Assembly: GCA_965202585.1 (NCBI GenBank)
Contig: OZ241830.1
Location: forward strand, 67,084,001-67,148,000
From: Thalia democratica
Lineage: Eukaryota
Direction: 5' to 3'
Length of the DNA stretch: 64,000 nucleotides
Positions 2,950-54,300 of the stretch are shown here, piece after piece; the stretch's first letter is position 1; each line of letters starts with the position of its first letter. Made by a program: the position numbers and the translations under genes. The notes below the pieces were generated by a model, which saw nothing but the letters and a program-made list of their open reading frames with translations, was not told the DNA's origin and made no database searches.

Positions 2950-3810
2950 TGCAACAGAACAATGCTTTACTGTTTTGTTGTTATCTTCACGTAGGTAAAT
3001 ATTTTGGTTTTGATGTTTTATGAGGTGGGCCATTGGACAAGAGTCAGGCATTCTACATTTAAATGCATTTTCCCCATGGGCTAAATGCACGTCACAAAGT
3101 TTTACACTATGAAAATTTGCGTATTGGTCGCGACCAGATCTATTATGCTTCTGATTAGGTTAGTTACTACCATAATCATTACAAAACTTGTTTTGGTTCT
3201 CATGTTAGCCTGCGTTATTGCGTCTCCTTGTTCTATTTGTTCTGAAGCGTGGCTCGCGAACCCCATAGTCTATGTTCTGTGTGTTATGTAAGTGCCTCTC
3301 TTCATGACCTACAAAGGTTGCTGCCATCCCAAGGTGAAATTTTTCAATATCATGTCCAAAGTTTGCCCGTACCTCACTTTTAAGACTATCTGGCGCCAAG
3401 TAGCAAGTGAAAAATTTGACCCTATCATCTAAAGTTGCTTTTGCCCACTTTGTTGCTTCCATACGCAAGTCCTGGTATTTTATTGGTGCATTAGACAATG
3501 TTCTGGACCTCAGAATTTTTGGTAAAGGGCAACCTATTTCCTGAAGAAAGCGGTACAAATTATTATAGTTTTTTTTCTTGCCTCGAGGATGACTCCCAAA
3601 AGTCTTTGACATCCTTTTGAGGCCATTTTTGTAATAGAACTTTGTCTGTTCGTTTTTAATCTCGTACACTTCACATTGGTGCTCAAAATACCCCAATTCC
3701 ATTTTGTATGTTTTGGAAGTTAGGGGGATGTCACGGAACAGTTTTGAGAGATCTTTCACTCTCTTAAGTCGAGCATATATTATATCATCATGGTGTTTAT
3801 TAGTTGCCAT
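2950..3810 (-). pseudogene. Gypsy-like Gag (decayed), copy 1
   Basis: 207-aa ORF (ATG at 3810) contains YFEHQCEVYEIKNEQTKFY and P..NYNNLYRFL. The same frame continues through two stops to LCDVHLAHGENAFKCRMPDSC, resembling the C-x2-H-x3-G-x2-A-x2-C-x2-P knuckle of CsRN1/Kabuki-type Ty3/Gypsy Gag. Recognised by eye only. Confidence 0.55.
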
Positions 3811-3984
3811 GTATGATTCATTTACCAATCAAATCAACATCGTTTATAAAACTTAAGAGTTGGTTAGAACACATTCAGACTTAAATAACAGAAAAATGTA
3901 GAAAGTTCAAAAAATCTCCTCGCCGCCGGAACTCGCTCCGCCCCTGCACATCTCCACGTCGTCTGACCGGTCCACGCCGATCCG

Positions 3985-4447
3985 TCTCCTCGCCTCACCC
4001 AACGGTCTCTTGGCGCCACGGAATCCGTCTCCTTGCCTCACCCAGTGATCTCTTGGCCCTACGGAACCGTCTCCTTGCCTCACCCAGCGGTCTCTTGGCC
4101 CTACGGAACCGTCTCCTTGCCTCACCCAGCGGTCTCTTGGCCCTACGGAACCGTCTCCTTGCCTCAACCAGCGGTCTTTTGGCCCTACGGAACCCGTCTC
4201 CTTGCCTCAACCAGCGGTCTCTTGGCCCTACGGAACCGTCTCCTTGCCTCAACCAGTGGTCTCTTGGCCCTACGGAACCGTCTCCTTGCCTCACCCAGCG
4301 GTCTCTTGGCTCTACGGAACCCGTCTCCTTGCCTCAACCAGCGGTCTCTTGGCCCTACGGAACCGTCTCCTTGCCTCACCCAGCGGTCTCTTGGCCCTAC
4401 GGAACCGTCTCCTTGCCTCACCCAGCGGTCTCTTGGCGCTACGGAAT
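3985..4447. repeat. 42-bp GC-rich VNTR, 11 units
   Basis: Unit cttggccctacggaaccgtctccttgcctcacccagcggtct; two units carry an extra C. It produces the many overlapping repeat ORFs in the track. Confidence 0.95.
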
Positions 4448-6934
4448 CCTCTGATCCGTCTCTTCATACATCTCCTCTTTCATCTCCTCGTTCCTCACCT
4501 CGTTCATAAGTCTCCTCTACCGCTCCTCGCCGATTCGTTTCTCGAGCCGTTCGTGCGAAAGTGCAATTAGAATGTACGTCACTACTTGATATCAATTTTA
4601 AAAACAAGTTAAAACATTAAAAGATAAAAAAATTCAATTTACAAACTTATATGCTACTAGTTAGCAACAACATTACATTAATCCATTAGTCTATTTATAT
4701 TTTAACTTTAAAGTTTCTTAAGTTTCAAAGTAAATGAGAAACATTTTTGGCTCCCATCAATATACAGTAATTCTCTACAAGCTTTAAAATAAAAAACATT
4801 TCACCTTTTACACGAATTAGTTGACAAAACAAGCATTCACATGCGTCTCAAAAGTTTAAACTTGTTTTTGTAAAAATACAAAGCCAGTAAACTTGTACTG
4901 ATTTTAAAAAACTTTCATATTAAAACAAATTTTAAACAAAGTTCTTTTTAGTTTTCAGATTTTAAATACCGGATAAGACATTTCATAGCTCGAATGACCT
5001 TGTTAAAAAATTTTTTTTTTCTTAAGTACGGTTAAATCTAAAACAACAAAAAACATGCCAATAAAGTTTGTTACAAGCAATTAACAAGGTCATTGTAAAA
5101 AAAAACTTTAAATATTATAGTTTAAAGTTTGAACATAACATTGTAGCTAAATATAAAACTAAATTAAGTTTAATAAACTTAAGAAATTTCACTTCAATAA
5201 CCGATTATGCACTCGAAAACAAGTTTTAATAACCTCATACAAATATTTTTACAAGGACGAACGAAAAAACAACAATGTTTTTACATGCAGTTTAAAAAGT
5301 TTATTATCCCTTATAGTTCAAATTAAACGATTGTTCGAAAACAAAACAATTAAACTTTACAGTTGCTAACTTTTATAGACGTTTAAAACTCTTTTTGTTA
5401 TAAGAAAGATTTATTATTAGAAGCCTTTAGTTTTATTTTAACTTTTAATAAAATGTTTAAAACGATTGAACGATATTTAATTAATTTGACAAAACGCGGA
5501 ACAACTTGAAAACAAGACTAACTTTTGTTTAAACTTGCTCGTACAAGTTTAAAACTCATTTTGAAAAACGCTTCAACAATGAATTGCAATAATATCTACA
5601 CAACAAATACATTTTAGTTCTAACACATGTCCATTAGCTTTTCCCAAACCACTTTAACATAAAATTCAACACAATAAAGCTAATTACTTTTTGCAAAAAA
5701 CAACACAAATCTCTCACAAACTCGAACTACTTAGTTGTTTTTCCAACTAGAAATTTTAAACTCATTTTTAAAACTTTACAGACCAGATGAATGGGTTAAA
5801 TAAATGCCCTTAAGTTTATCGAATTTATAATATTATTAAATAAGGTTTATTTTACTCTGTTTTCAAGTCACCATCTACAAAACGTAACAATTTTAATGAA
5901 GGTATCTGTGTTCAATTCCAGTTATAAATAACTGGACGTCCGGGTCACCATGTCGCTACCTGGTTAAAGATTCTACTTATATATACTATTTTTGGCCTGG
6001 TTTAATACGCAACGTGCGCTCCAACTTATAAAGTAGAAGTCCCCAAGATAACGCTTAAATTATAGTTGACTTAAATAAACTAATATGAATTACTTACTAT
6101 TTACTAAATGTTTGATAAATCAGTTACTTATACTAATTTAAACTGAGTTCGAATTTGTGATCATGAATATATTTACAATGAATTTGCGAAACGAAAAGAT
6201 GATAAAAAACTGCACAACATTACACTAGAATAACAGAAACTAAACACTACATGTTTAAACCAAACTCAAAAAACATTCTAAAATCGAAATCACTTCAACA
6301 AGATCGAAACCATTAAAACTTAAGTGCAGCGAAAAGCTGCACTGAGTTCAGACCGTTCAATGAAGTAGAAACTAGAAAAACTGAACTGAACTAAACCAAT
6401 TACGCGATATTCAAAATTTATACTCGCTTGAAAAAAAGAAGAAAGTAAAAAAGAGACAATTACCGCTCACGCGGTACAGCTTCAAGAAGTAAACAAGTCA
6501 GAAAAAACCCCTAATTAGAAACAACTCTAAACCGCTACCAAGCGGTTACAGTTCTAACCATTTTTTATTTTTGCATGTGGAATAAAGCTGACGAAAAGAA
6601 AATAACAAGTTTTGTTTTGCTAATTTTTTATATATATTAAAGAAAATAGATATTAAGTATACAAAAGAAAAAATCTAAACCAGGAACAATAACTTGCAGG
6701 TTGTGCTTAAAAGCAGCTTTATTAATGCTTGAATCTAGAACAAATTGCGACAGTTTTTAAGGAAAACAAAGAGACATGAGGCTTTAAACTAAAATTTATG
6801 CCAAAACTAACAGATGAACTAAGAGAATTCTAAAATAAAATGATAAACTTAATCACACAGGTAAAGTTTACAAAAATAAGTTACAGCTTCCAAGATAAAC
6901 TAGTAAATGATCTTATAATAAGTAAAACCGAAAC

Positions 6935-17546: not shown

Positions 17547-19576
17547 ATGGATACAATTCAAGAACTAGCAAAAAACTTACCTGATTGCAATGCGTCAAAA
17601 ATTGATGATGATTTTTTTCAAAAACTTGGTTTTAAAGAAGAAGGTTAGTTAAAAATTATATATATATTTGTTGATATTGAGTAAAATTATATCTGTTAGC
17701 TGTTAGATTATTAATTATCAAATTATCTCTTTTGTTTTTTAATAATTAAATGTTTTTAGCGAAGATTTGGGATCACATTTTTAATTTTTGGCTAATTATT
17801 TATAGATTAGATTTTCAAATCAAACCATTTTATTTCTTTAATAGTAGTACCTCTCTTTTATTTTTGTGTGAGGAATCTTCGTAAAAAATTCGTAAATAAC
17901 AGCTTAAATATGACTTATGCAGCCCAAGCAGTTTATTTAATTACAACTTAAAGGTGTTTATTGTATACTTTTGTTTTTCAAATAAATAATCAACTCATAC
18001 TTAACATCAAAGCGCTATTTTTAATCATATTTTTTTTAACTGTCTTTATTACATTATCAGCAACTATTGTTGTGCTTTACTTTTAACAAATCTTCTTGTG
18101 AACTCACTTGAAAAAAATTATTTGCAGACATTCGATACATGAAAACGGAAGTTAAAGATTTTTTTGATAAATGGGACTATCAAAAGAGAAAATTGACAAT
18201 TCCAATAGTCGATCATCATGTGGAAAAAATAAAGTATAAATTGAAAGATGTTTACCAGGTAAAAGTTAAGATGTTACAGAAGCATTTAATGAGTTATTGC
18301 TACAATTACAAAAGCAAATTTCTTTCACCTGGTATAAGTCTAAACCAAATGCTGGCTGATCATAAAGACTATATTAAAAATAGAAAACGAGCTGGAGTCA
18401 TTGCAATAACAAAAGATAATAAGGTGTTAGTAGTTCAAGCCTTTGAAAAAGTATGGTTTCCTAAAGGCAAAGAAAACTATTATGATGCTGATTTAAAAGA
18501 GACAGCTGTGAGAGAGGCGAAAGAAGAGTCAAGTAAGAACTTTTTGCTCAAATATTTAACTTCCTTTTTGTACAACAAAGCATTTTTATTAATAGATAAT
18601 GAATTTTACTATCGAAAAGGTTAACACATTATAGTAATAAATATAACATTTTTAATACACATACAAGTTATTTGATATTTTCTAATGCTTTTAGACTTAA
18701 ACTTGTGTAGGTTTAGTTAACTAAAACGTATTTTAAATTCTAAAGCAGTATTTTGTTCTCTGTAGTATTTATTAAAATTTAAAAAACAATTTTTAGCCTG
18801 GTTTATATTGTTAGTTTAAATTTGATCAAATGATATGGTATTAATTTATTTTGGTTGATAAAGATTTTAAAAAATAATTATCTATTCATTCATCTTTTAG
18901 TCTGGTTAATTTTAAATATTCATCATGGTTACTTTTGTTTTCTTAAGCTGGTATGAACTTATAGAGAAATAAAGGCTTACAGTGCGCTCACTAACTTAAA
19001 ATAAAAAACTAGTGATAATTTAGAAAATTATAAGAATTTCATTTGATAATATTTTTTTTTGTAACAACTTTTGCTTTACAAAAGTACCAATAATAATATT
19101 TGAAAGGTATGTTCTTTAGTTTAAAAAAGAAAAAGTTTGAAATTTAGTTTTCTTTATTTGAACAAAAACTATTAGTATTTGTTGTTAAACAGTTTTTGCT
19201 TAATTAAACAAAATAGAGTTCTGTGAACATTTTTTAATATCTTTACAATTTTAAAAGCAATTAACAAACAGGTTTGACTCTAACTAGCTTACAAAAAGAT
19301 GGTTGTAAGAATTCGATTACCATAAAAGAAAAAAAAGAAGATAGGGAGTACGACGTTAAATATTACATAATTGAAAACGTGGACGAAAGTCAAATTAATC
19401 TTGACCACACTGTTCCCCATGAGGTCGACGCAGTTCATTTAGTCCCGTTGGAAGATTTGTTGCGTAAAAAAAGGATAACGGTTAAAGACAGAAAGAATCA
19501 AAACTTACCTAAAAGTTTAAATGTACCTTACCAAACAAAAAGAGTTATTTGGAAGTATTTTAATGAAAAACGTTAA
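17547..19576 (+). CDS. Dcp2-like Nudix hydrolase, 3 exons (17547-17643, 18128-18532, 19272-19576), 268 aa
   Basis: Both GT-AG introns are phase 1 and the joined length is 807 nt, in frame. Contains KDYIKNRKRAGVIAITKDNKVLVVQAFEKVWFPKGK..ETAVREAKEESSL..KYYIIENV..HEVDAVHLVPLEDL, similar to the Dcp2 Nudix fold (W-G-FPKGK, REVFEETG, RLYII..EIRNIEWF). Confidence 0.8.
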
Positions 19577-24491: not shown

Positions 24492-25897
24492 TTACTTACT
24501 TATACTTAATAATACTAAATTTGGAAATTTTCTAACATTAGTTGTTTTAACCTGATGAGTTAATTGGTGGTTGTGTTTTATATTATTATTTTGTTTTTCT
24601 ATCTGCTTTTTGTATCTGAATTTGCAATAATCATTGGCCAAATAGTATGTTTGTGGAGGCTTCTGGTGCCTGTTAAACCTCTGATTATAGCTTGGCCACC
24701 TACCTGGGACATATTTTGAACCCTGAACTGTTCTGAAGTTGGGTCCTGTTACATTTGTAGCTTGTGGAATGTTTTTTTACTCATTGCTACATCAAATTGA
24801 ACAGCCTCACCTTGTCTAAGTGACCTTATATACTTGTTAGGGTTGTTTTTAGTAATGTCAGTGTGATGAACAAATATATCACTGTCATTATCATCACTGT
24901 GAATGAAATCATATCCCTTGTTTACATTAAACCATACCAAACGGCCAGTTATCTATGTGCTATAACTTTTCTGGGAGTTTTAGGTTTAAATTTCTGTAAT
25001 TTTTTTTCTTGGAGTAAAAGAAGCAGGTTTTGCAATTGCAACAGAACAATGTTTTATTGTTTTGTTGTTATCTTCACGTAGGTAAATATTTTGGTTTTGA
25101 TGTTTTATGAGGTGGGCCATTGGACAAGAGTCAGGCATTCTACATTTAAATGCATTTTCCCCATGGGCTAAATGCACGTCACAAAGTTTTACACTATGAA
25201 AATTTGCGTATTGGTCGCGACCAGATCTATTATGCTTCTGATTAGGTTAGTTACTACCATAATCATTACAAAACTTGTTTTGGTTCTCATGTTAGCCTGC
25301 GTTATTGCGTCTCCTTGTTCTATTTGTTCTGAAGCGTGGCTCGCGAACCCCATAGTCTATGTTTTGTGTGTTATGTAAGTGCCTCTCTTCATGACCTACA
25401 AAGGTTGCTGCCATCCCAAGGTGAAATTTTTCAATATCATGTCCAAAGTTTGCCCGTAACTCACTTTTAAGACTATCTGGCGCCAAGTAGCAAGTGAAAA
25501 ATTTGACCCTATCATCTAAAGTTGCTTTTGCCCACTTTGTTGCTTCCATACGCAAGTCCTGGTATTTTATTGGTGCATTAGACAATGTTCTGGACCTCAG
25601 AACTTTTGGTAAAGGGCAACCTATTTCCTGAAGAAAGCGGTACAAATTATTATAGTTTTTTTTCTTGCCTCGAGGATGACTCCCAAAAGTCTTTGACATC
25701 CTTTTGAGGCCATTTTTGTAATAGAACTTTGTCTGTTCGTTTTTAATCTCGTACACTTCACATTGGTGCTCAAAATACCCCAATTCCATTTTGTATGTTT
25801 TGGAAGTTAGGGGGATGTCACGGAACAGTTTTGAGAGATCTTTCACTCTCTTAAGTCGAGCATATATTATATCATCATGGTGTTTATTAGTTGCCAT
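24492..25897 (-). pseudogene. Gag-like + Y-box cold-shock domain, copy 2
   Basis: Duplicate of 2405-3810 with the same stops and frameshifts. Confidence 0.75.
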
Positions 25898-26071
25898 GTA
25901 TGATTCATTTACCAATCAAATCAACATCGTTTATAAAACTTAAGAGTTGGTTAGAACACATTCAGACTTAAATAACAGAAAAATGTAGAAAGTTCAAAAA
26001 ATCTCCTCGCCGCCGGAACTCGCTCCGCCCCTGCACATCTCCACGTCGTCTGACCGGTCCACGCCGATCCG

Positions 26072-32227: not shown

Positions 32228-33251
32228 CCCCAGCCTGATGATACAAAATATGCTGCTATTTTAAAACTGACATTAGTCGAAAGGAACAAAACACAGATGC
32301 AAAGATTCTAGAGAGAGAAGCAGATTTAACAAAAAGGATAGTGAGTTTCAAAAGATGCACTAAAACAATGGGTCCAAAAGAGAAGCATGATTTGGAGGAG
32401 GATTTGAAAAAAGACATTGTAAAATATAACAAAGAAGTTGACGAGGTCAATAAAGAGAGGATGAAATTACATCCTATAGTCAAGAGTAATTTTTTAACAA
32501 AATGGCAAACAGGATTAGATAAGAAATGGAAAAATGCTCAGGAAGAAATAAGAAAAAAGCAGAGTTAGTAAGTAAGTATGAAAATGATATTATACCTGCC
32601 GAGGATGGTAAGGACTATGTTGATATCCCTTCTTGAGTGCAGGTCCCAGTCTTGTCTCTGATATTAGGAGCAGGATAGAAACCCTATCTACATCAAGCCA
32701 ACAATCTCAGCAAGTTGCTGTGCGTAAGCAATTGACTCTAGAACAATTCAAAGAATACCATAAAAGGGTTAGCGATGATATGTCAATGATCGAATATAAA
32801 GGAGACATCACTATGTCTGATGTTGAATTCTACTCTTACGATAGACTTCTAGTGTTTCAGAGGATTTGGGAGAGGGCCAAAAGCAGGGAAATCATAGTTA
32901 GCTTAGATGACAAAACTTTTGGCACAGACGTTTTCATTTGGCTCGTTCGAGGAACAAACTTTGAAAGAATCAAGAGAGGCCTAAGCGACAAGACTAAAAA
33001 TTGCTTGAATACTCTGATCAGGAGGTACGGCTTTAAGGGTCGTTCGATTAACCAAGAAACCAAGACGATGGAACGTCTGCAAAATGATGATCTAACAGTT
33101 TCTCGTTTCTGTGACATTTATCCCATGAGAGTGTGGGCCGTGTGGAATAATCCCAAGTTGACAGAAAGACCAGACTTCTTAACATTTACTCATCTCACTA
33201 AGGCTGAAAAAAAATTTATCAGAAATTTTAGGTGTCCCTCGTTGCCTTACC
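32228..33251 (+). pseudogene. Endogenous viral element: phenuivirus-like (Bunyavirales) nucleocapsid, N-terminal and central part
   Basis: VEFYSYDRLLVF..WLVRGTNFERIKRGLSDKTKNCLNTLIRRYGFKG..NDDLTVSRF aligns to phlebovirus N EFAYQGFDARRV..ALTRGNKPRRMMMKMSKEGKATVEALINKYKLKE..RDELTLSRV. An upstream charged helical extension is readable through frameshifts. GC is higher than the flanks; no introns. Confidence 0.8.
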
Positions 33252-33881
33252 CTACCCCCAGAGCAAGCAAGAACAGGTGTAGAAGAAATTGTTTGAGAAT
33301 AAAGAGATATTTGAATACATAAAAAAAAAAGAGATACATCAAGAAAATGTAAATATTACATACTTACTAATACTTAGTACTGTACAGTTTTATAACTTTT
33401 ATACAAACAGTTATATGAACCAACCGTTGGTAATTGGTGATATGGTGAGTGTACGTATTAATAAAGTGATATTATGTCATTTGTTTTCAAAAATGAATTA
33501 AGATTTGTTAGAAGTCTCAAATGGTAAAATGTTTGACAGTTGTTTTTTTTTTGCAATATTTTATACATTTATCTCTTTTTGTTTAATTAAATGTTTAATA
33601 TTATAATCATTTTAGTTTCATCTTTTTCATAATTACAAAAAACCTTACTTATGTCACTAGGAAATGATGAAGGATCTAAAAAATTTTCCTAAAAACCCAG
33701 CAATCACCCTCCCTTGGTAATTGCTGAGGTGGTGAGTGTACGTATTAATAAAGTGATGTTACGTCATTTATTTTCAAAAATAAATGAAGATTTGTTAGAA
33801 GTTTCAAATGGAATGAAAGAGAAGTCTTTAACACTGCAAGTGTGTTTAAAGGTTAGATAAGTTATATAGTGTATATAGAAA

Positions 33882-43450: not shown

Positions 43451-44079
43451 GTTAGCTTTAATTTTGAATATAAAGTTGTTTTAAGGTAGATTCTTATAGT
43501 ATAAAATCAGTTGTAGATGAAACTTGTAAATTTATTCATGAATTAAACTCTAAGAATTTTTTCATATTATTTAAATTTCCAAATGAACTCATAAAAACTA
43601 AAAAAATTAACAAGCTCAAGATGAGGTAGGTTTTTGAAATAATCGAAGACATTTTAATCCCGATATGACAAAGTAAGGATTCTATTACTTACCAAAAAAT
43701 TATGTACTCATTTAATAGCATTACAGATATCTCATACAATGGTGAATGTCCATCTAACTGTTTCTGTCTTAAGCCAAAATTCATTAAAAAAATTAAAAAA
43801 GTTTTGAATGAAAACATATATAGGCCAAATCAGCTTACTATGAGTTTAATGATCTATTAAAAACCAGGAAAAATTTCAATTATCTAATGCTCAAAGTTAG
43901 AAAATCTAAAGAAGTAACAGTTAATACAAACAAATATATTGCTTTTGACCAATTTTGACAACTGACTAAGTTTGTTGGCAAATACAGCTTCTTAAGACCC
44001 AAGTATCTGAGGAAAAAAGTAATTTACCCTTTTTAGTTATTAGATCAAATATCAGTAGAATTGGATTACTTGATTTACA

Positions 44080-45459
44080 ATGTCACTATCAAGAGAGAGT
44101 TTCGCATTATGCGGTGTTGACGGCGTGGTCTACCAAGGATCCCTCAATACAGGAATGTGCAAGGAAAAACCTGATATGCCCAAAGAGTATTTTGATGCTC
44201 ACAAAAGCAAGCCAGTGATTCCAGTCTATACTATAAATGAGACTGATGATAATCTGAGAAACCTATTTAAGAAGATCAGAAATAGTATCGGCAAAGCTAA
44301 CAAGGAACTCAAGTCTGTGTCAGCTTTTATGTGGTACTTTATGGGTAAGATTGAGTCTACGTTGAAGAAGTCTTGGGTTGCCAACGGTCAATTGATAGGG
44401 AGTGAGGGACAAGTGATAACTCCAAAGTCTTTAATAAGTCCTGATCAAAAGATTTTGGAAATAGGTGTCGAGAGCGGAGTGGAAGTTTCAGAGGAGCAGG
44501 CATGGCAGTTATTCTGGGCACTCGTCGGAGCTTACAGACTCGCTTCTCTCAAGGGTAAGAGCGATTACTATGTAAAGGCAGTACAAACCAGAGTGATAGG
44601 ACATTTTAGGCTGTCTCCTTTTGAGGCGAGTGTTGGAGATACGACTCCCTTGACAATGGCTCCAATGTTAGATAAGTTAGAGTACACTGGGTTGATAGCG
44701 AGCCTCAACATGTTTTTCAATCGTTTCAGCGATCATGAGTTTGCCAGTTGCGGACTAGGCACATTATCTTCTAGATATAGAAACTGCGCCACCTTAACCA
44801 GTCTGATATCCTTCGCTTATCAAGTCAATAGAAAGTTTACAGAAGTGTTTGAACACTTTCCGTTTATGGAATTGGTTCCAGAACTTAGAAGACTTACTGA
44901 TCCTAATGAACAGGACGAGCCGGACTCGTATTCTCCGTACATAAAGGACTTCGGAATTTGCAAGGTATCTCCGTATTCATCAACTGCCAATCCTCTCATG
45001 TACACCCTGCTGCACATCACTGGCACTGCTCTAGGTCACGAGAGATCCATGAGAGCCGTAAGAGTCGGAGATGTGTCCAAAGACACATTATTGAGAATGG
45101 GGTGTATAGCTGCTATGTGCCTGAGAAATTATTCAGGTTATGAAATGATCGCTGCTAGCAATACAGAGCTTATGGAAGAAAGGAAAGCCGGTAGAAGAAG
45201 TGCAGAAGAGTATGCAACTGGACCTGAGCTTCTTAAGTATGATAGAGCTATAGCAGCTGGAACAAAGATTCCCCCAAGTTGGAAGCCTTGGTTTAGAACC
45301 GGGACTGGTTGGGATGTCTTGGAAATGCTCAGACACTCTGATGGGTTGTTTGACAGTTTCAGGAAGATGATAAAAGCCAAGATTTCATATTCCGAGATGA
45401 GACAGAATTCAATTGGCAAAATGGTACAAGAATATGTCACTGCTCCGGACTTGAGTTGA
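44080..45459 (+). CDS. N: Endogenous rhabdovirus nucleoprotein, intact 459-aa ORF
   Basis: NMFFNRFSDHEFASCGLGTLSSRYRNCATL..DSYSPYIKDFGICKVSPYSSTANP..RSMRA matches VSV N DMFFHMFKKHECASFRYGTIVSRFKDCAAL..DSYMPYLIDFGLSSKSPYSSVKNP..RARNA. Also AYRL vs LYRV. Length typical of rhabdoviral N; intronless; GC clearly higher than the flanks. Confidence 0.95.
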   Translation: MSLSRESFALCGVDGVVYQGSLNTGMCKEKPDMPKEYFDAHKSKPVIPVYTINETDDNLRNLFKKIRNSIGKANKELKSVSAFMWYFMGKIESTLKKSWVANGQLIGSEGQVITPKSLISPDQKILEIGVESGVEVSEEQAWQLFWALVGAYRLASLKGKSDYYVKAVQTRVIGHFRLSPFEASVGDTTPLTMAPMLDKLEYTGLIASLNMFFNRFSDHEFASCGLGTLSSRYRNCATLTSLISFAYQVNRKFTEVFEHFPFMELVPELRRLTDPNEQDEPDSYSPYIKDFGICKVSPYSSTANPLMYTLLHITGTALGHERSMRAVRVGDVSKDTLLRMGCIAAMCLRNYSGYEMIAASNTELMEERKAGRRSAEEYATGPELLKYDRAIAAGTKIPPSWKPWFRTGTGWDVLEMLRHSDGLFDSFRKMIKAKISYSEMRQNSIGKMVQEYVTAPDLS

Positions 45460-46144: not shown

Positions 46145-46747
46145 AGAGGATCTGGGAGAGGGCAAAAAGCAAGGAAATCATAGTTAGCCTAGATGACAAA
46201 ACTTTTGGCACAGACGTTAATGACATCGTTTTCATTTGGCTCGTTCGAGGAACAAACTTTGAAAGAATCAAGAGAGGCCTAAGCGACAAGACTAAAAATC
46301 GCTTGAATACTCTGATCAGTAGGTACGGCTTTAAGGGTCGTTCGATCAACCAAGAAACTAAGGCGATGGAACGTCTGCAAAATGATGATCTTACAGTTTC
46401 TCGTTTCTATGATATTTATCCCATGAGAGTGTGGGCCGTGTGGAATAATCCCAAGTTGACAGAAAGACCAGACTTCTTAACATTTACTCATCTCACTAAG
46501 GCTGAAAAAGAATTTATCAGAAATTTTAGGTGTCCCTCATTGCCTTACCTTCAAAACAAAGGATGACGGTTCAAAAGACATCTCAGATTTTCGCAACATT
46601 CTTGTGACTCATGCTATTGTTCTGACTGATTTTGATCGACTAATGTTCTCATGGGTTAGGAAGAGAGAAAATATGCCTGATGAATTTAAACCTAGAATTG
46701 AGTTTATTCAGCAAATCATCAAGAAAAAGGCTAATAGAAGTCTTTAA
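46145..46747 (+). pseudogene. Endogenous phenuivirus-like nucleocapsid, central and C-terminal part
   Basis: About 400 bp near-identical to 32860-33251. After one frameshift it continues FKTKDDGSKDISDFRNILVTHAIVLTDFDRLMFSWVRK..KKKANRSL*, comparable to phlebovirus ILDAHSLYLLQFSRVIN. Confidence 0.8.
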
Positions 46748-47849: not shown

Positions 47850-48170
47850 ATAGCAGACGAGACAACTGATATTAGTGTCCAAAATCAGCTGTCAATCGTT
47901 TTAAAATACATACACTAAGAAAATGTTGTTGAGAGATTCTGATTAAGGCAATTTTCAAAATCCAGTTGCTAGAATTAGAAAGTCAATCATAACAGACCAT
48001 GAGTCTGTAAATCTCTCTGCTGCTGCAAAAGAGGTTTGCGACAGTGTACATCTAAATGTTGCAGAAAGGTTTAAGTTTTCTGGCCAAGAACTGTATATTT
48101 TAAGTAGGACAAAAAAAAATAATTTAGGAGTAGCTTTAAATATCAGAATAATTTTGTATAGCCTAGGATA
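47850..48170 (+). mobile_element. hAT (ZMYM1/DUF4371-like) transposase fragments
   Basis: DETTDISVQNQLSIVLKYI..VVERF, then ..EVCDSVHLNVAERFKFSG. A related LIVDETTS fragment lies at ~40060. Confidence 0.7.
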
Positions 48171-48899
48171 ATTATGCCTGAAAGACCAGTGTTTTTTTTT
48201 TTTTTGACAGATGGAAAACTTTAACACGTTTTTGAGTGCAAACACAATGAACACTTTTAAAAAATTAAAGTTGTAAAATTAAATAGTTATTTTAATTTTC
48301 TCTAAAAACTTTTACACTAATTGCAGAAACGTGCAGTCTGGACCCACTACTGCGTTCTATTGGACGAAATATATTTTGTGAAAGATGCTAAAGAACAATT
48401 CGAGATTATCACTGCTAACTAGAGACCAACTACTTCGTACTGTATGACAAATCTGGTTTTGCAAAAAAAAAGATAAAGAGTTAAAGATAATAACGTACCA
48501 ACTATCACGTACGTACGTTAGCGACCACATGAGTGCCAGCATTCAAGTACCCATTTGCTACGCCAAGCTGTTGGCACTCGGATCCAGGCAGTATTAAAAC
48601 GGAGAAAACCTAAATCAAATAGGTTTTGCTTGACTTAAATTTTTATGGAGTTGTGATCATAACTAGAGGAAAAGCAAATTGAGGTAAATCAGTAGCTCGG
48701 CAAGATATAGCAGTTAATTTATTTTTGCAGTGGGTGTTTTGTTATGTATACACAAAATCATTAAATGCGGTCAAGGCAAAACTTGAATCTATTTGTAAGT
48801 CTTCAAAACATTAGCAACATTTTCTTACAAGAAGAGAGGTGAAATGTATTATACAAAACCAAATGTGTTTTGAGAATCAATCTCTTTTCGACATCATAG

Positions 48900-50470
48900 T
48901 AAATAAAAACCAATGTGAAATACTTGTAAACTGGTATATGAAGATTTTAAATTTCATGAAAAGATGGCATAGGATGTTGCTCATCATTTGTCCATAGAAA
49001 GTGAAAAACATTAAATGAAAAAAAATTAACTTCACAGATCCAGATAACAGAAGGCTGATGAATGGTGATTGCAAATATTTCAAGTTCCAATTGAATTCAC
49101 TAGTGATGCTGAGATATAAAAAGAAAAAGATAGAGTATATTTTATCCAATTGAAAAGTTTAGATCAAAATGAACAGCTTCAAAAAAGTACACTTTTGCTG
49201 TAACTGATAGATTGCTTATTGATGATATGCCTTTGAAGTATAGAAATATACGGCTTGGAAAACGAAAAGTCCCCCCAGAAACCTACCAAGTTGTTCAAAA
49301 GCTTAAATCAATGCTTCACACATCTTAAGCTAAAAGATCGATTGCTGAAATTGCAAACACTGATCTTAGAAGAAATAAATTTGGTTCTTGGTAAGTTTAC
49401 AAACCTGACAAACCATATTATATGAACACTTTGCCAGCATCTTCTAAAAGTGACATACTAGATCCATACGGAGAAGCCATGGTTCTTTGCTTAAAATTTC
49501 CTCCGGCCAAGAAGAGTCTCTTCCTCAAGTATATTGTTTGCTTACCGGTTTCTGTGTGTGAGAAATGTTTTATAGAAAACCTAAAAACGGTTAGTAATAA
49601 CTGTCTCCGCCAAATCTTGTATCATAACAATGCAAGATGGAGGATGTTTCTGGACTTGAAAGTTCTTGGTAATTATGATACAGCCGCATACCAGACAGAA
49701 ATACCTTCTTATTTTAACACCTTCGGCGTTAGACGTGAAAGGACAATGGATCCAAGATTTCTGAGATGTATAGACGATTCTATTAGCCACATACTGACTA
49801 GGAAAGTGAGGAGCGTCGGTTGGCGGTACTCCAAAGCGCATGGGAATAGGGATAGGCAAAACTCAAGAGACACAGAATGGTTTGCACTGGCGCACATGAT
49901 GGGTGAACAAATCTACAAGAGACGTTTGTCTGATCATGAGTTGGATTGTTTGTCAAGCTATTCAGGGGTATGACACTTTTTGTCTTATCAGGTTAAGCTA
50001 TCTTGAGCAAGCAATAGATAACCTGTTGTAAGTTCTGGAATAGTATTGGGTTACAAGGGAGGGAAAAGAATTTAATGTTTGCTAACATCTTGTCCAATGA
50101 TTGAATTTTAGATTGTGCACTGATCAGAGTAAATTTGACCAGTAACAAGCCTATGATTGGATAGTATACGCGGTGAATAATTTAGTCAAACAGCTTTCTC
50201 TGAATAATCATCCTGGTTTATCCTCATGACTTACCTCTGTTTGTTGAGAAAGAGATTGAATCTCTATCACAAGTTTATATCTATGACAGGAGAACCAAGT
50301 TCATGTGAAAACATGGTATTCTTAGTGGTTATCGTTGAACTGCTCTCCTGGATCCTATTATTAACCGCGCTGCTACGCGGTGGGTTTTTGACAGACTGGT
50401 AGCTCTGGTTTGTTATGAGGTTTACCAAGGTGATGATGCTTCGGTACCATTCAAATGGAAAACTTAAACA
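48900..50470 (+). pseudogene. Endogenous toti-like dsRNA virus RdRp (decayed)
   Basis: Motifs occur in the correct order: WRMFLDLKVLGNY, motif A DQSKFDQ (50122-50142), motif B GILSGYR*TALLDPIIN (from 50315), motif C YQGDD (50423-50437). Several stops and frameshifts; the 5' boundary is uncertain. Confidence 0.85.
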
Positions 50471-50964
50471 CGTTTTTGAGTACAAATCCATTGAACACTT
50501 CCAATGTATCAAAGTTATAAAATTAGATATGGTTTTTTTTTTGTGAAAACATCTGAAATAACTCATAATTACCAAGTGTGAGTCTACAAACAAAGTTTTT
50601 GTGTACAACTAAACCCTTTGACATATAGGAAAAGTTTTTAACATACTAGTGAATTGGAATCTGTTTGCTACAATTAAAATTTGAGAAATATTTTATTTTT
50701 ATTCAAAATAGTGGTTAAGTTTACAAGGTGTATATAGAAACGAAAGCAAAAGTTCTAGGAATCATCCATGATGAGATGACAAATTATAAAAGATGAAAAA
50801 TCAAAATGTAAGGATTTTTAACTAAAGCACTACCTGTAGACAAGGCACTGTAACTGGGTAGCTGTAACTTTCAATAACTATTAGTGCTAATATATTAAAT
50901 AAAAAATAATAATTGCTTTCTCAGGATTTTAAGATATTCTACAATCTAAAAACTCTAATATGAT

Positions 50965-51329
50965 CATGTTGCCATTCGTTTTTTCAACAATTCTTCCAGG
51001 TTTTCAAATTTCTACCATGTTTTTATAAGAACACATTTTGGGTCTATTTTTAGTTTTAAGTCAAGGTTAAGATAAGAAACTGTGTTAAATAGTATAAAAA
51101 CATTGAAAAGATATTGTAAAGCTACTTTAAATATGTTTTTAATAAGAAAAATGTTTGAAGATGACAAATATTTTTTTATGTATATGTTAAATTTTTTGAG
51201 TCTAATCAAAATTTTACTATTAAACATGTAAAAATTGTAAAAATTCCAGGTTTTTCCAGGTTTTTTTTTTTTTTGCTTAAAATGTCAAATTCCAGGTTTT
51301 TCCAGTTTCCAGGTAAAGTGGCAAACCTG
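50965..51329. mobile_element. Probable hAT-type MITE with CA(G)GTTGCCA termini and TTCCAGG subterminal repeats
   Basis: catgttgcca.. at 50965 and ..tggcaaacctg at 51329; a related end gtggcaaccct at ~54330. Confidence 0.45.
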
Positions 51330-54300
51330 TATGATAAATAAATTTAACTGTGCTGCTACCCAATTAAATGGTGATTTGAAAAGGTAAGACAGTAACCATA
51401 AAATGCTTTTTACAATTTAAAAAAACAATGCTTATTGCTGATTATGTTTCTAAAATGTATTTTACTGTAAAATTACATTTTAAAATACTGAATCAACCAG
51501 TTATCAAAGCTTAACTTTTAAAGAACACATTACCAATGTTTGAAATATTAAATCGAAATTTCCTTAACAAGCAACTGTAACAAACCTGCTATTAAACAAA
51601 TAATCAGTCAAAATAATATTTTCTGATTAAAAGTTTGGCAGCAGAAATCCTCTGGCTCTCTCCAATTCATTCAATTCTGTTTAATTGAACATGAACTCCA
51701 AACTCAACTTCTGTGTGTGTGTTGACCTCACCTGTGAGAAAAAAATACTACAATAGATTATTTAATGGTTCTTACTTTTCATTTGTATGATGTTTAGTAA
51801 CATTGTGTATAATTTGGCAGTTCATGTCCATAATTTTGTATTGAAAAAAAATTAATGTTTACTGTATTGTCATTTTTAATGTTTACTTATTTTTGCAAAA
51901 TGCATTTCAATTATATAATTAATAATGCTTCAATATTAAAACAACCCATTTTTAGGATTTAATTCTTTTTAAGATAAGACTTATAAAATTATATAATAGC
52001 GTAAAAAAGAATTAAGTCATACATTATGCTGTATTTCAAGTGAAGACAAATAAGTTCACATATTGCCTTTTACAAGCATATGTATTTTTAGTAAACGTAT
52101 TGTTTTGAACATTTTTAATATTTTAATTCAGCAGAAACTGTCAGCTTAAAATAGTTTGTAGGTGACAAATATACATATAGGAACACTATTTTTAGTTGAT
52201 TTTTTTTCTTTTTTTTCTAAATGACTATCACTGTTACCAATGAATCTCCCCCTTAGTCAGTAATTTTTTTTCTTGTTGTCAATTTTATGTTTTTAAAAAT
52301 CACTGTGACCCCTAACCCATGCCTTTGGCTGGTAACTTTTTTCTTGTTAAATTTTATATTTTTTTATTTTTATGCTTAATAATTAGAAAGTCTGTTGAAA
52401 AATAAAAAATTATGACTTTTTTTGGTTTATTTTTGTTATAAGATTTTTATTTCTTTTTACTTTTGTTCTAACAAAAATTTCTAAATATTGCAAGACACAT
52501 TTCCTGAAAGTTTGAATTATCTCAAAAAACGTAGGAGACTGATTTTTAGTGAAGTAGTTTTATTTTTGCCTTTATAATTCCCGCCTCCCATAAGAAACCT
52601 ATTGTGGTCTACAGCTTTGACCAGCTTTATTTCAAAAATTATTTTCAATTTTTTAAATCTGTAAAAAGCAACTTGAAGCTTAGTAAAACTCAATAAAATA
52701 AGATCAAATTGTGATTAAGTGATTTACCTCCTATGCCCCTAACTTTTACATTATCCAAATAGAAGTATAAATCCTATGTTTACTTACCCTATCTGATTAA
52801 CCAAATATTTTGCAAAAACTTTTGTTTGCAATGTGATCTATAGCTATGAAATTAGTTTTGCAAAACAATTAAATTTTAGATATATATTTTTTTAATTTAT
52901 AAACAGTTTTTCAGTACACATCAGTGCTATTAACGGCATAAGGTGTAAGACTTTTTTATTCTTATTTCAAAACTTATATTGGGTTTTAGTTTAAAGCTCT
53001 AAGTACTAACTACAAGTCAACTTTAAATTAATAAATTTCTGAGTTAAAGTTAATTTTTTTAAGTATCTGATATAAGCTTATGGGCCGCAATTTTGCCTTT
53101 ATCAATTTTATCACAAATTTAAACATTCACTATAAAACTATTATCTTCTTTTTTTTTTGAGCAATTAAACTCAACTTTTCAGTAAAAATTCTTTTAATAG
53201 TTTGAATACTTTGAATATTTGAATTTAAAATACATTAAAATACAGAAACTTCTGAAAAAAAGGTTATACTTTTAATATATTTTATTTTCAAAAATAAATT
53301 TCAAAAAGGTTTCAACATTCAAAAGATTTTAATAATAGTAAAAGAATTATGAAGAAATTGAAAAAAATTAATTTCAAAATGAGTTAGAGATTGATCTTTA
53401 GTGAAATAGTTCCTTTTTACTTGTTAGTTTCCATCTTACAAAAAGAACCTATTGAACTCACCAATTTTATATCTCAAAATTGCTCGAAATTTGTTGAGGA
53501 AAGTATCTGAGTGCTAATATAAAACTCAATAAATAAAATTAAGGTCATAGAGGGACCTTGATTTTTAGGAGTCGTTCTTATTTTGTTGAGTTTTATCTGA
53601 GCTATCAGACATTTTAATTAACCAATAGAAAAAAAGCTCAAATATTTTTTAAGATATAAACAATCAAAGTTGAAGAACCTAATATGCTCCTAATGAAAGG
53701 CACAAACTAAAAACCCTAAAAAAAGGGGATTTCAATATAAATATATCTCATCCTTCATATTAATATATTTAAATATTCACAGAAAGTCCGTTACAAACAT
53801 TTAAGTTGAATAAATGTAGGATTTCTAACTTTGAAAAACAAAATATTTATTTAAAACCAACATTTATTTATTTTTTGTTTCCACAATTTTTTTTTTTTAA
53901 TTATAGTATTGAAGGTCGTTTCAATTTTTCAAACAAGATTTTCTAATAGTTTTAAATAGAGGTCTCTAGTCAAAAAAAAAGATCAATAAAAATTTTTAAT
54001 GATTTTTTTTATTTCCAAGAAAACTGACCCTGTAAAATTTTTGGTCTATATGTTTGTATCAGAGAATTTTTACAAAAAAATTAAATATCTCATCAGATTT
54101 TTTTTTTTTTGATTCTGTAAGAACTGAATAGTACTTAAAACTTAAAGCTTTAATTTTGTTCTGTAAAATTGAAATTTCACTACTAAACAGTAAAATTTAT
54201 TTAAAGTTTCAGGTTTTTCAAAAATTTTTTGTTTAAACTTCCAGTTTTTTTTTTTTCAAAATTTCTCAAAACCCATTTTTTTTTATGCAAATTGTCAAAT

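Follow-up and report, generated by a model that had tools for sequence, protein, structure and literature searches.

The window analysed here (64,000 nucleotides, C6:67,084,001-67,148,000, of the 81-Mb contig C6 in an 802-Mb, AT-rich assembly) carries between 49497 and 50446 on the forward strand what its sequence identifies as a real fossil of a toti-like (RdRP_4) double-stranded RNA virus polymerase. We propose, with a probability of about 0.7, that a viral RNA was reverse-transcribed by the enzyme of a host retroelement and that repair of a break in a transposon took up the cDNA, with decay and duplication following. An unclassified virus clade, with members named only from moulds and fungi, has on this evidence likely infected tunicates.

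A toti-like polymerase fragment

Viral similarity is limited to 49497-50446 (+), which is 950 bases against the 1,570 of the original prediction; that prediction placed the element at 48900-50470, and its start at 48900 does not hold, the 5′ 600 bases being host transposon. The insert aligns, in three frames with stops, to residues 78-425 of the 771 in the environmental viral RdRp P0032 (tblastn, E 1.4e-50) and to residues 68-414 of the 763 in P0023 (tblastn, E 2.7e-43), and with relatives as queries the match reaches far 5′ of the seed peptide at 50204-50464. The fragment represents about 45% of the gene and ends directly after motif C, motif D/E and the C-terminal part of the RdRp not being found in the insert, and its GC content is 0.40 against 0.25-0.34 in the flanks. 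Motif A (DQSKFD, 50122-50139), motif B (GILSGYR-stop-TALLDPIIN, 50315-50365) and motif C (QGDD, 50426-50437) were all located on the forward strand, in the canonical order first reported for them and colinear with intact relatives.

Three segments matched a profile built from 16 relatives, scoring 68, 59 and 71 bits in the window. The N-terminal one, at 49497-49811 (+), is an open frame within a 183-aa ORF and covers profile positions 49-153 (68-73 bits); the middle one, at 49954-50211 (+), contains motif A, has its frame disturbed internally, meets a stop at 50143, and covers positions 232-324 (59-65 bits); the third, at 50228-50446 (+), contains motifs B and C with stops at 50306 and 50336 (71-76 bits; PF02123 E 1.7e-4). 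Two of these three segments are absent from the seed query, and no further score of 8 bits or more was obtained in the window, the reversed window or a 200-kb flank, except in a second copy of the element. With X at its two stops, the peptide from 50204-50464 matched PF02123 (RdRP_4) as the sole family of 24,736 (E 1.7e-4), at 21.1 bits, just below the Pfam gathering cut-off of 22 bits for this family; the PF02123 assignment suggested for the motif B-C peptide is therefore supported by its E value and falls short in its score. Among 1.84 billion proteins phmmer gave 17 matches (best E 3.4e-13), 15 of them above the RdRP_4 cut-off and the remaining two unrelated. Together with the tblastn match, these RdRP_4 relatives uphold the identification as a toti-like dsRNA virus RdRp fossil.

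Several other searches were silent. Whole-frame Pfam and PDB scans missed the RdRp fossil, a 192-aa ORF having no Pfam match there and no usable match in the ESM Atlas; word-indexed protein searches with single-fragment queries gave no matches among 189 and 39 candidates; none of three IMG/VR candidates was confirmed with a single peptide; and a PF02123 profile search of the genome returned no candidates, with its positive control silent too. We regard an assembly artefact, a contaminant or a chance motif match as vanishingly improbable, for the Pfam score under the cut-off, which would suit such an account, stands against a match of E 1e-50 across three colinear frames, clean profile controls, and two diverged copies in one 81-Mb contig with colinear host flanks and both shared and private lesions. 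The stretch occurs in two DNA sequencing runs of one study, possibly those of the source sample, and in no RNA run listed. Decayed viral sequence that adjoins host DNA within a chromosome would class the insert as an endogenous viral element (EVE) of non-retroviral kind.

Junctions, duplication and decay

Directly 5′ of the viral sequence lies the 5′ part of a dispersed host repeat (48670-49494, +), likely a non-autonomous DNA transposon with long terminal inverted repeats, truncated at the viral junction. Its portions at 48670-49022 and 49393-49494 match 10 dispersed host loci at 66-81% identity, 49022-49393 being missing from these copies, and the match terminates at 49494 in all eight dispersed copies displayed; the long inverted ends were seen in comparisons with one locus (L009), and the ORFs of the repeat have no Pfam match. 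In another dispersed copy (L010:1598-2693) a different inverted-repeat element is inserted at the place where the window's copy is cut by the virus, a shared position that may reflect a preferred cutting site or chance. On the 3′ side viral similarity ceases just past motif C and host sequence is found again from 50452, where the right copy of a direct repeat (50452-50539, +) begins at the junction; it is 81% identical to the left copy at 48208-48293 (+), and the two form an 88-110 bp repeat bounding a 2.2-kb cassette. We rejected these repeats as a target duplication or LTRs, since they occur at four other C6 places with either continuation, and neither a poly-A tail nor a short target duplication was found at the insert. 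Two paralogous blocks 4 Mb away on C6 are without the insert. The paralogue at C6:71.43 Mb was dropped as a proven empty site because its match to the left repeat gives way to one with the continuation of the right repeat; it may be a join of the left and right repeats by later deletion instead. In a tree of the flank, the window groups with the second copy of the insert (25 sites, against 9 and 8), the inner branch being very short.

This second copy lies 126 kb upstream (C6:67,006,886-67,008,312) and is 89% identical. It carries the same transposon junction and colinear flanks (48088-54149), and shares the stops at 50143 and 50336, on which grounds it would be a duplicate made after decay had started. 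Private lesions are a stop at 50306 in the window, one at 50276 in copy 2 and six indels inside the insert, and the K2P distance between the copies is 0.10 in the insert against 0.07-0.18 in the flanks. A third locus, on contig C5, holds a fragment of 165 bases; copy counts in the genome are lower bounds. Between the window and the C5 fragment pS is 0.93 and pN 0.26 over 54 codons (P 1e-12), 34 of 48 residues are identical, where the best exogenous matches of the two reach 24 of 47 and 27 of 44, and the C5 flanks are unrelated to those of the window except for one 190-bp repeat. As the differences are mostly synonymous and the flanks unrelated, the C5 fragment was likely captured independently, from a related virus; such a pattern is expected of two viruses that diverged while alive. 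Long ORFs adjoin the C5 fragment (L078:3190-4263 and 4166-4567, both −), which presumably resemble a CBP/p300-type acetyltransferase domain.

We envisage that a virus of this toti-like clade would have replicated in cells of the host lineage, that a middle portion of its RNA, about 1 kb long, would have been reverse-transcribed, and that the cDNA would have replaced the transposon's 3′ part with neither a poly-A tail nor a short target duplication left behind; the insert would then have decayed, been duplicated with its flanks and decayed on at an approximately neutral rate, while a related virus would separately have left the fragment on C5. The reverse transcription by a retroelement enzyme and the break repair are proposed by analogy with non-retroviral EVEs in general, and Penelope-like RT/GIY-YIG elements are nearby, RT and GIY-YIG ORFs adjoining copy 2.

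Frame breaks occur near 49811, 49940-49954, 50022-50104 and 50211-50228, profile positions 154-231 find a poor match or none in the insert, and the similarity stops at residue 425 of 771, ahead of a block at 460; the continuous frame with motifs F and A-E of a functional RdRp was not found. Because of the frame breaks, the stops and the lack of anything past residue 425, the gene appears dead as a polymerase and the insert, judged by these lesions, is incapable of making a working enzyme; it is likely a dead fossil. It was described at the outset as the most decayed EVE, which is true among the RNA-virus-like pieces identified in the window, where a rhabdovirus nucleoprotein (N) gene retains an intact frame of 461 codons.

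One part of the insert is still open. An ORF at 49395-49973 runs for 192 codons, and from its ATG at 49422 gives 183 aa (49422-49973, +). With the repeat match running up to 49494 and the viral one from 49494-49497 onward, this ORF starts in the transposon and enters the viral gene; the original prediction had the ORF right and took all of it for the N-terminal RdRp part, whereas the ATG and the first ~24 codons derive from the transposon. Across 191 confidently framed codons the naive dN/dS between the window and copy 2 is 0.47, with 21 of 63 changes synonymous against 16.1 expected (P 0.085, by a permutation keeping base-change types and for the paralogue comparison alone). In the N-terminal segment 13 of 32 changes are synonymous against 8.0 expected (P 0.025, uncorrected; NG dN/dS 0.32), its pN of 0.082 differs little from the divergence in the flank, 0.093, and the window copy agrees with relatives at 11 sites against 5 for copy 2; in the motif A-C part 8 synonymous changes compare with 8.0 expected (P 0.57). 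This suggests near-neutral decay, selection being weakly hinted at for the open frame.

Co-option of the 183-aa transposon-RdRp ORF as a host protein, comparable to the planthopper element NlToEVE14, would account for the 192-codon open frame, the synonymous excess in its viral part and the shorter branch of the window copy (0.05 against 0.13). A stop-free segment of this kind has, however, a probability of 0.33 under neutrality, the 3′ part of the ORF crosses deletions relative to exogenous relatives, and the frame is broken in copy 2; in the non-viral flank, too, the longer branch is that of copy 2, so that the asymmetry would be regional. We consider co-option very unlikely.

A repeat-rich neighbourhood of viral remnants

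The intact rhabdovirus N frame lies at 44074-45459 (+; PF00945 E 2e-44; PDB E 6e-25, with 12 nucleoprotein matches) and is probably the more interesting element of the window. A Cas8-like reading from the ESM Atlas, of low recognition, was rejected by the Pfam and PDB matches. Four further, broken rhabdovirus N fragments of ~50% identity were observed on contigs C2 and C7. In the upstream duplicated block the match to the window halts at 44039 and restarts at 48088, N being absent; because this duplicate, 126 kb upstream, carries the fossil without N, the RdRp fossil is likely the older of the two, with loss of N from the duplicate a possible alternative. The original prediction had deduced the oldest acquisition from a position at the right edge of the viral mosaic. 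The edge is uninformative about age, and precedence over N comes from the N-free duplicate.

Two tenuivirus-N-like ORFs (32624-33322 and 46147-46566, +) are 95% identical over 107 aa, the latter matching Tenui_N (PF05733) at E 2.5e-5 and 24.4 bits, where the cut-off is 25. A decayed piece of a host gene with a C-terminal Argonaute/Piwi domain (48324-48597, +; PF02171 E 0.004 in the window and 5.6e-4 in copy 2) shares 45% of 42 aa with a host Argonaute exon. It sits directly 5′ of the transposon, comes from a divergent gene and is repeated in the duplicated C6 blocks (L026, L075). Other features of the window include NUDIX-like ORF pieces at 18112-19576 (+; PF00293 E 4e-6), the first of which recurs in five flanking stretches, and a 207-codon ORF without a Pfam match (3205-3828 and 25292-25915, both −, and also in L032), which occurs in three near-identical copies of a repeated unit that spans ~22 kb and includes tandem arrays of 18 bp and 42 bp.

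The arrangement raises the question of a function as a one-strand, piRNA-cluster-like trap, in which antisense transcription of the insert would yield small RNAs against cognate viruses. Between 32 and 50.5 kb the forward strand carries rhabdovirus N, the two tenuivirus-N-like ORFs, the RdRp and two RT-like ORFs; the A/T skew reaches 0.107 at 30-51 kb, with values of 0.003 and 0.017 elsewhere; the region is rich in repeats with almost no long ORFs across the 200-kb flank; and a Piwi-type frame of 946 codons, intact and intronless, occurs elsewhere in the genome (L081:1455-4292, +, on C8). The count of independent viral pieces is three, however, given the near-identity of the two N-like ORFs, so that a common strand has a chance of 0.25, and other rhabdovirus N and toti fragments are dispersed on C2, C5 and C7. 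We consider this predicted role, which assumes the same origin of the insert, quite unlikely. Mosquito (Aedes) EVEs are reported to lie in piRNA clusters and to give small RNAs against cognate viruses; like those, the locus combines RNA-virus pieces amid retroelement remains in a repeat-rich region on one strand. A broader version, in which a branch of the virus clade repeatedly infected tunicates and the locus serves as an antiviral small-RNA memory cluster (toti-, rhabdo- and tenui-like pieces on one strand beside Argonaute remnants), we hold to be distinctly improbable. A piRNA-cluster role and an origin in a symbiont or prey virus (discussed below) are both compatible with capture by reverse transcription and do not exclude it.

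The source virus and its host

The nearest relatives are the environmental viral RdRps P0032, P0023 and P0008, at 50, 50 and 43% identity, and the tree places both copies of the fossil with these three (clade support 84/96). This midpoint-rooted tree has 34 rows and 230 columns, its 32 exogenous rows being 23 proteins and 9 of 17 IMG/VR loci, with fragments left out; two rows are named, both of them unclassified viruses. The 17 IMG/VR loci are those confirmed as relatives out of 89 pattern matches. No more than two members carry virus names, Phytophthora dsRNA virus 1 (unclassified Duplornaviricota) and Conidiobolus heterosporus totivirus 3, and the relatives also include the transcript of a marine microbial eukaryote. 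Both named viruses are alike to the fossil in RdRP_4 profile family and motif layout; they are 32% (over 230 columns) and 41% (128 columns) identical to it, respectively, and branch further off than P0032, P0023 and P0008.

The RdRps of the relatives measure 710-810 aa, on contigs of up to 5.2-5.8 kb and in one case 6.6 kb. The longest contigs carry an ORF1 of ~720 aa overlapping an RdRp ORF of ~770-810 aa, and two IMG/VR relatives (L041, L047) have two large ORFs on 5.4-5.6 kb, the non-segmented toti-like build of Ghabrivirales. ORF1 has no Pfam match, and from its position we infer that it encodes the capsid; one query with the L041 capsid found no capsid fossil in the genome. The Ootiviridae-like PcRV1 has a genome of 5,699 bp encoding 705 and 779 aa (PMC7289777, PMC12063590, PMC9698713). 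The relatives' contigs are built alike, and their genome build would fit Ootiviridae-like viruses, a build that other toti-like families share, with no classified member among the matches. The giardiavirus-like affinity first suggested is likewise a candidate placement.

The mitochondrial code, NCBI table 13 of the ascidian/tunicate type, makes a tunicate the likely host and rejects Hydra, an earlier candidate: the COX1 gene of a small contig contains 32 AGA/AGG codons, which fall on conserved Gly in the motifs checked, and reads ATA as Met and TGA as Trp. A genome search with the arthropod cuticle family PF00379 gave no candidates, its control being silent too, and has no weight in this assignment. 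Old, multi-kilobase nuclear copies of mitochondrial DNA (77-80% identity) occur at C4 56.84-56.94 Mb and on C757 (L069-L073), and those on the chromosome-scale C4 (77-79%) indicate that the COX1 contig derives from the host lineage.

A living cognate virus is not known from any tunicate, and an oomycete and a fungus are the sources of the named relatives. The virus could instead have been that of a protist or fungal symbiont or of prey, its cDNA entering the host germline sideways and the tunicate never having been a virus host. Tunicates are filter feeders, and the sources of the named relatives, Phytophthora and Conidiobolus, as well as the marine microbial eukaryote transcript, would agree with such a route. 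Against it, the two separate captures resemble one another more than either resembles a sampled virus, and the named viruses, with their low identities, are not the nearest branches; we judge it unlikely, while granting it some weight. The two separate captures suggest a likely animal (tunicate) host for this toti-like clade.

Among arthropods 5,686 toti-like EVEs have been reported in 593 of 1,188 genomes (PMC10636211). Those are likewise fragments of dsRNA virus genes fixed in animal genomes, whereas the host here is likely a tunicate, and the insert shows neither exon-intron structure nor proven co-option. The literature searched on tunicates, ascidians, Ciona, chordates and Hydra gave no toti-like EVE, with subscription papers and supplements, whose EVE tables could list some, outside its coverage. 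A survey of tunicate RNA viruses (bioRxiv 10.1101/2024.12.15.628590) nowhere uses 'toti' or 'Ghabrivirales' in the main text, and it set viruses of non-vertebrate type aside.

Since arthropods have many well-documented toti-like EVEs, the element is ordinary as a class and notable for its host and its repeated capture. An inherited copy links a virus to its host more firmly than the metatranscriptome of a filter feeder can, and the sampled members of the clade are nearly all host-less environmental contigs, to which these captures supply a likely animal host. The locus also offers a ready test for EVE-derived piRNA memory in the sister group of vertebrates.
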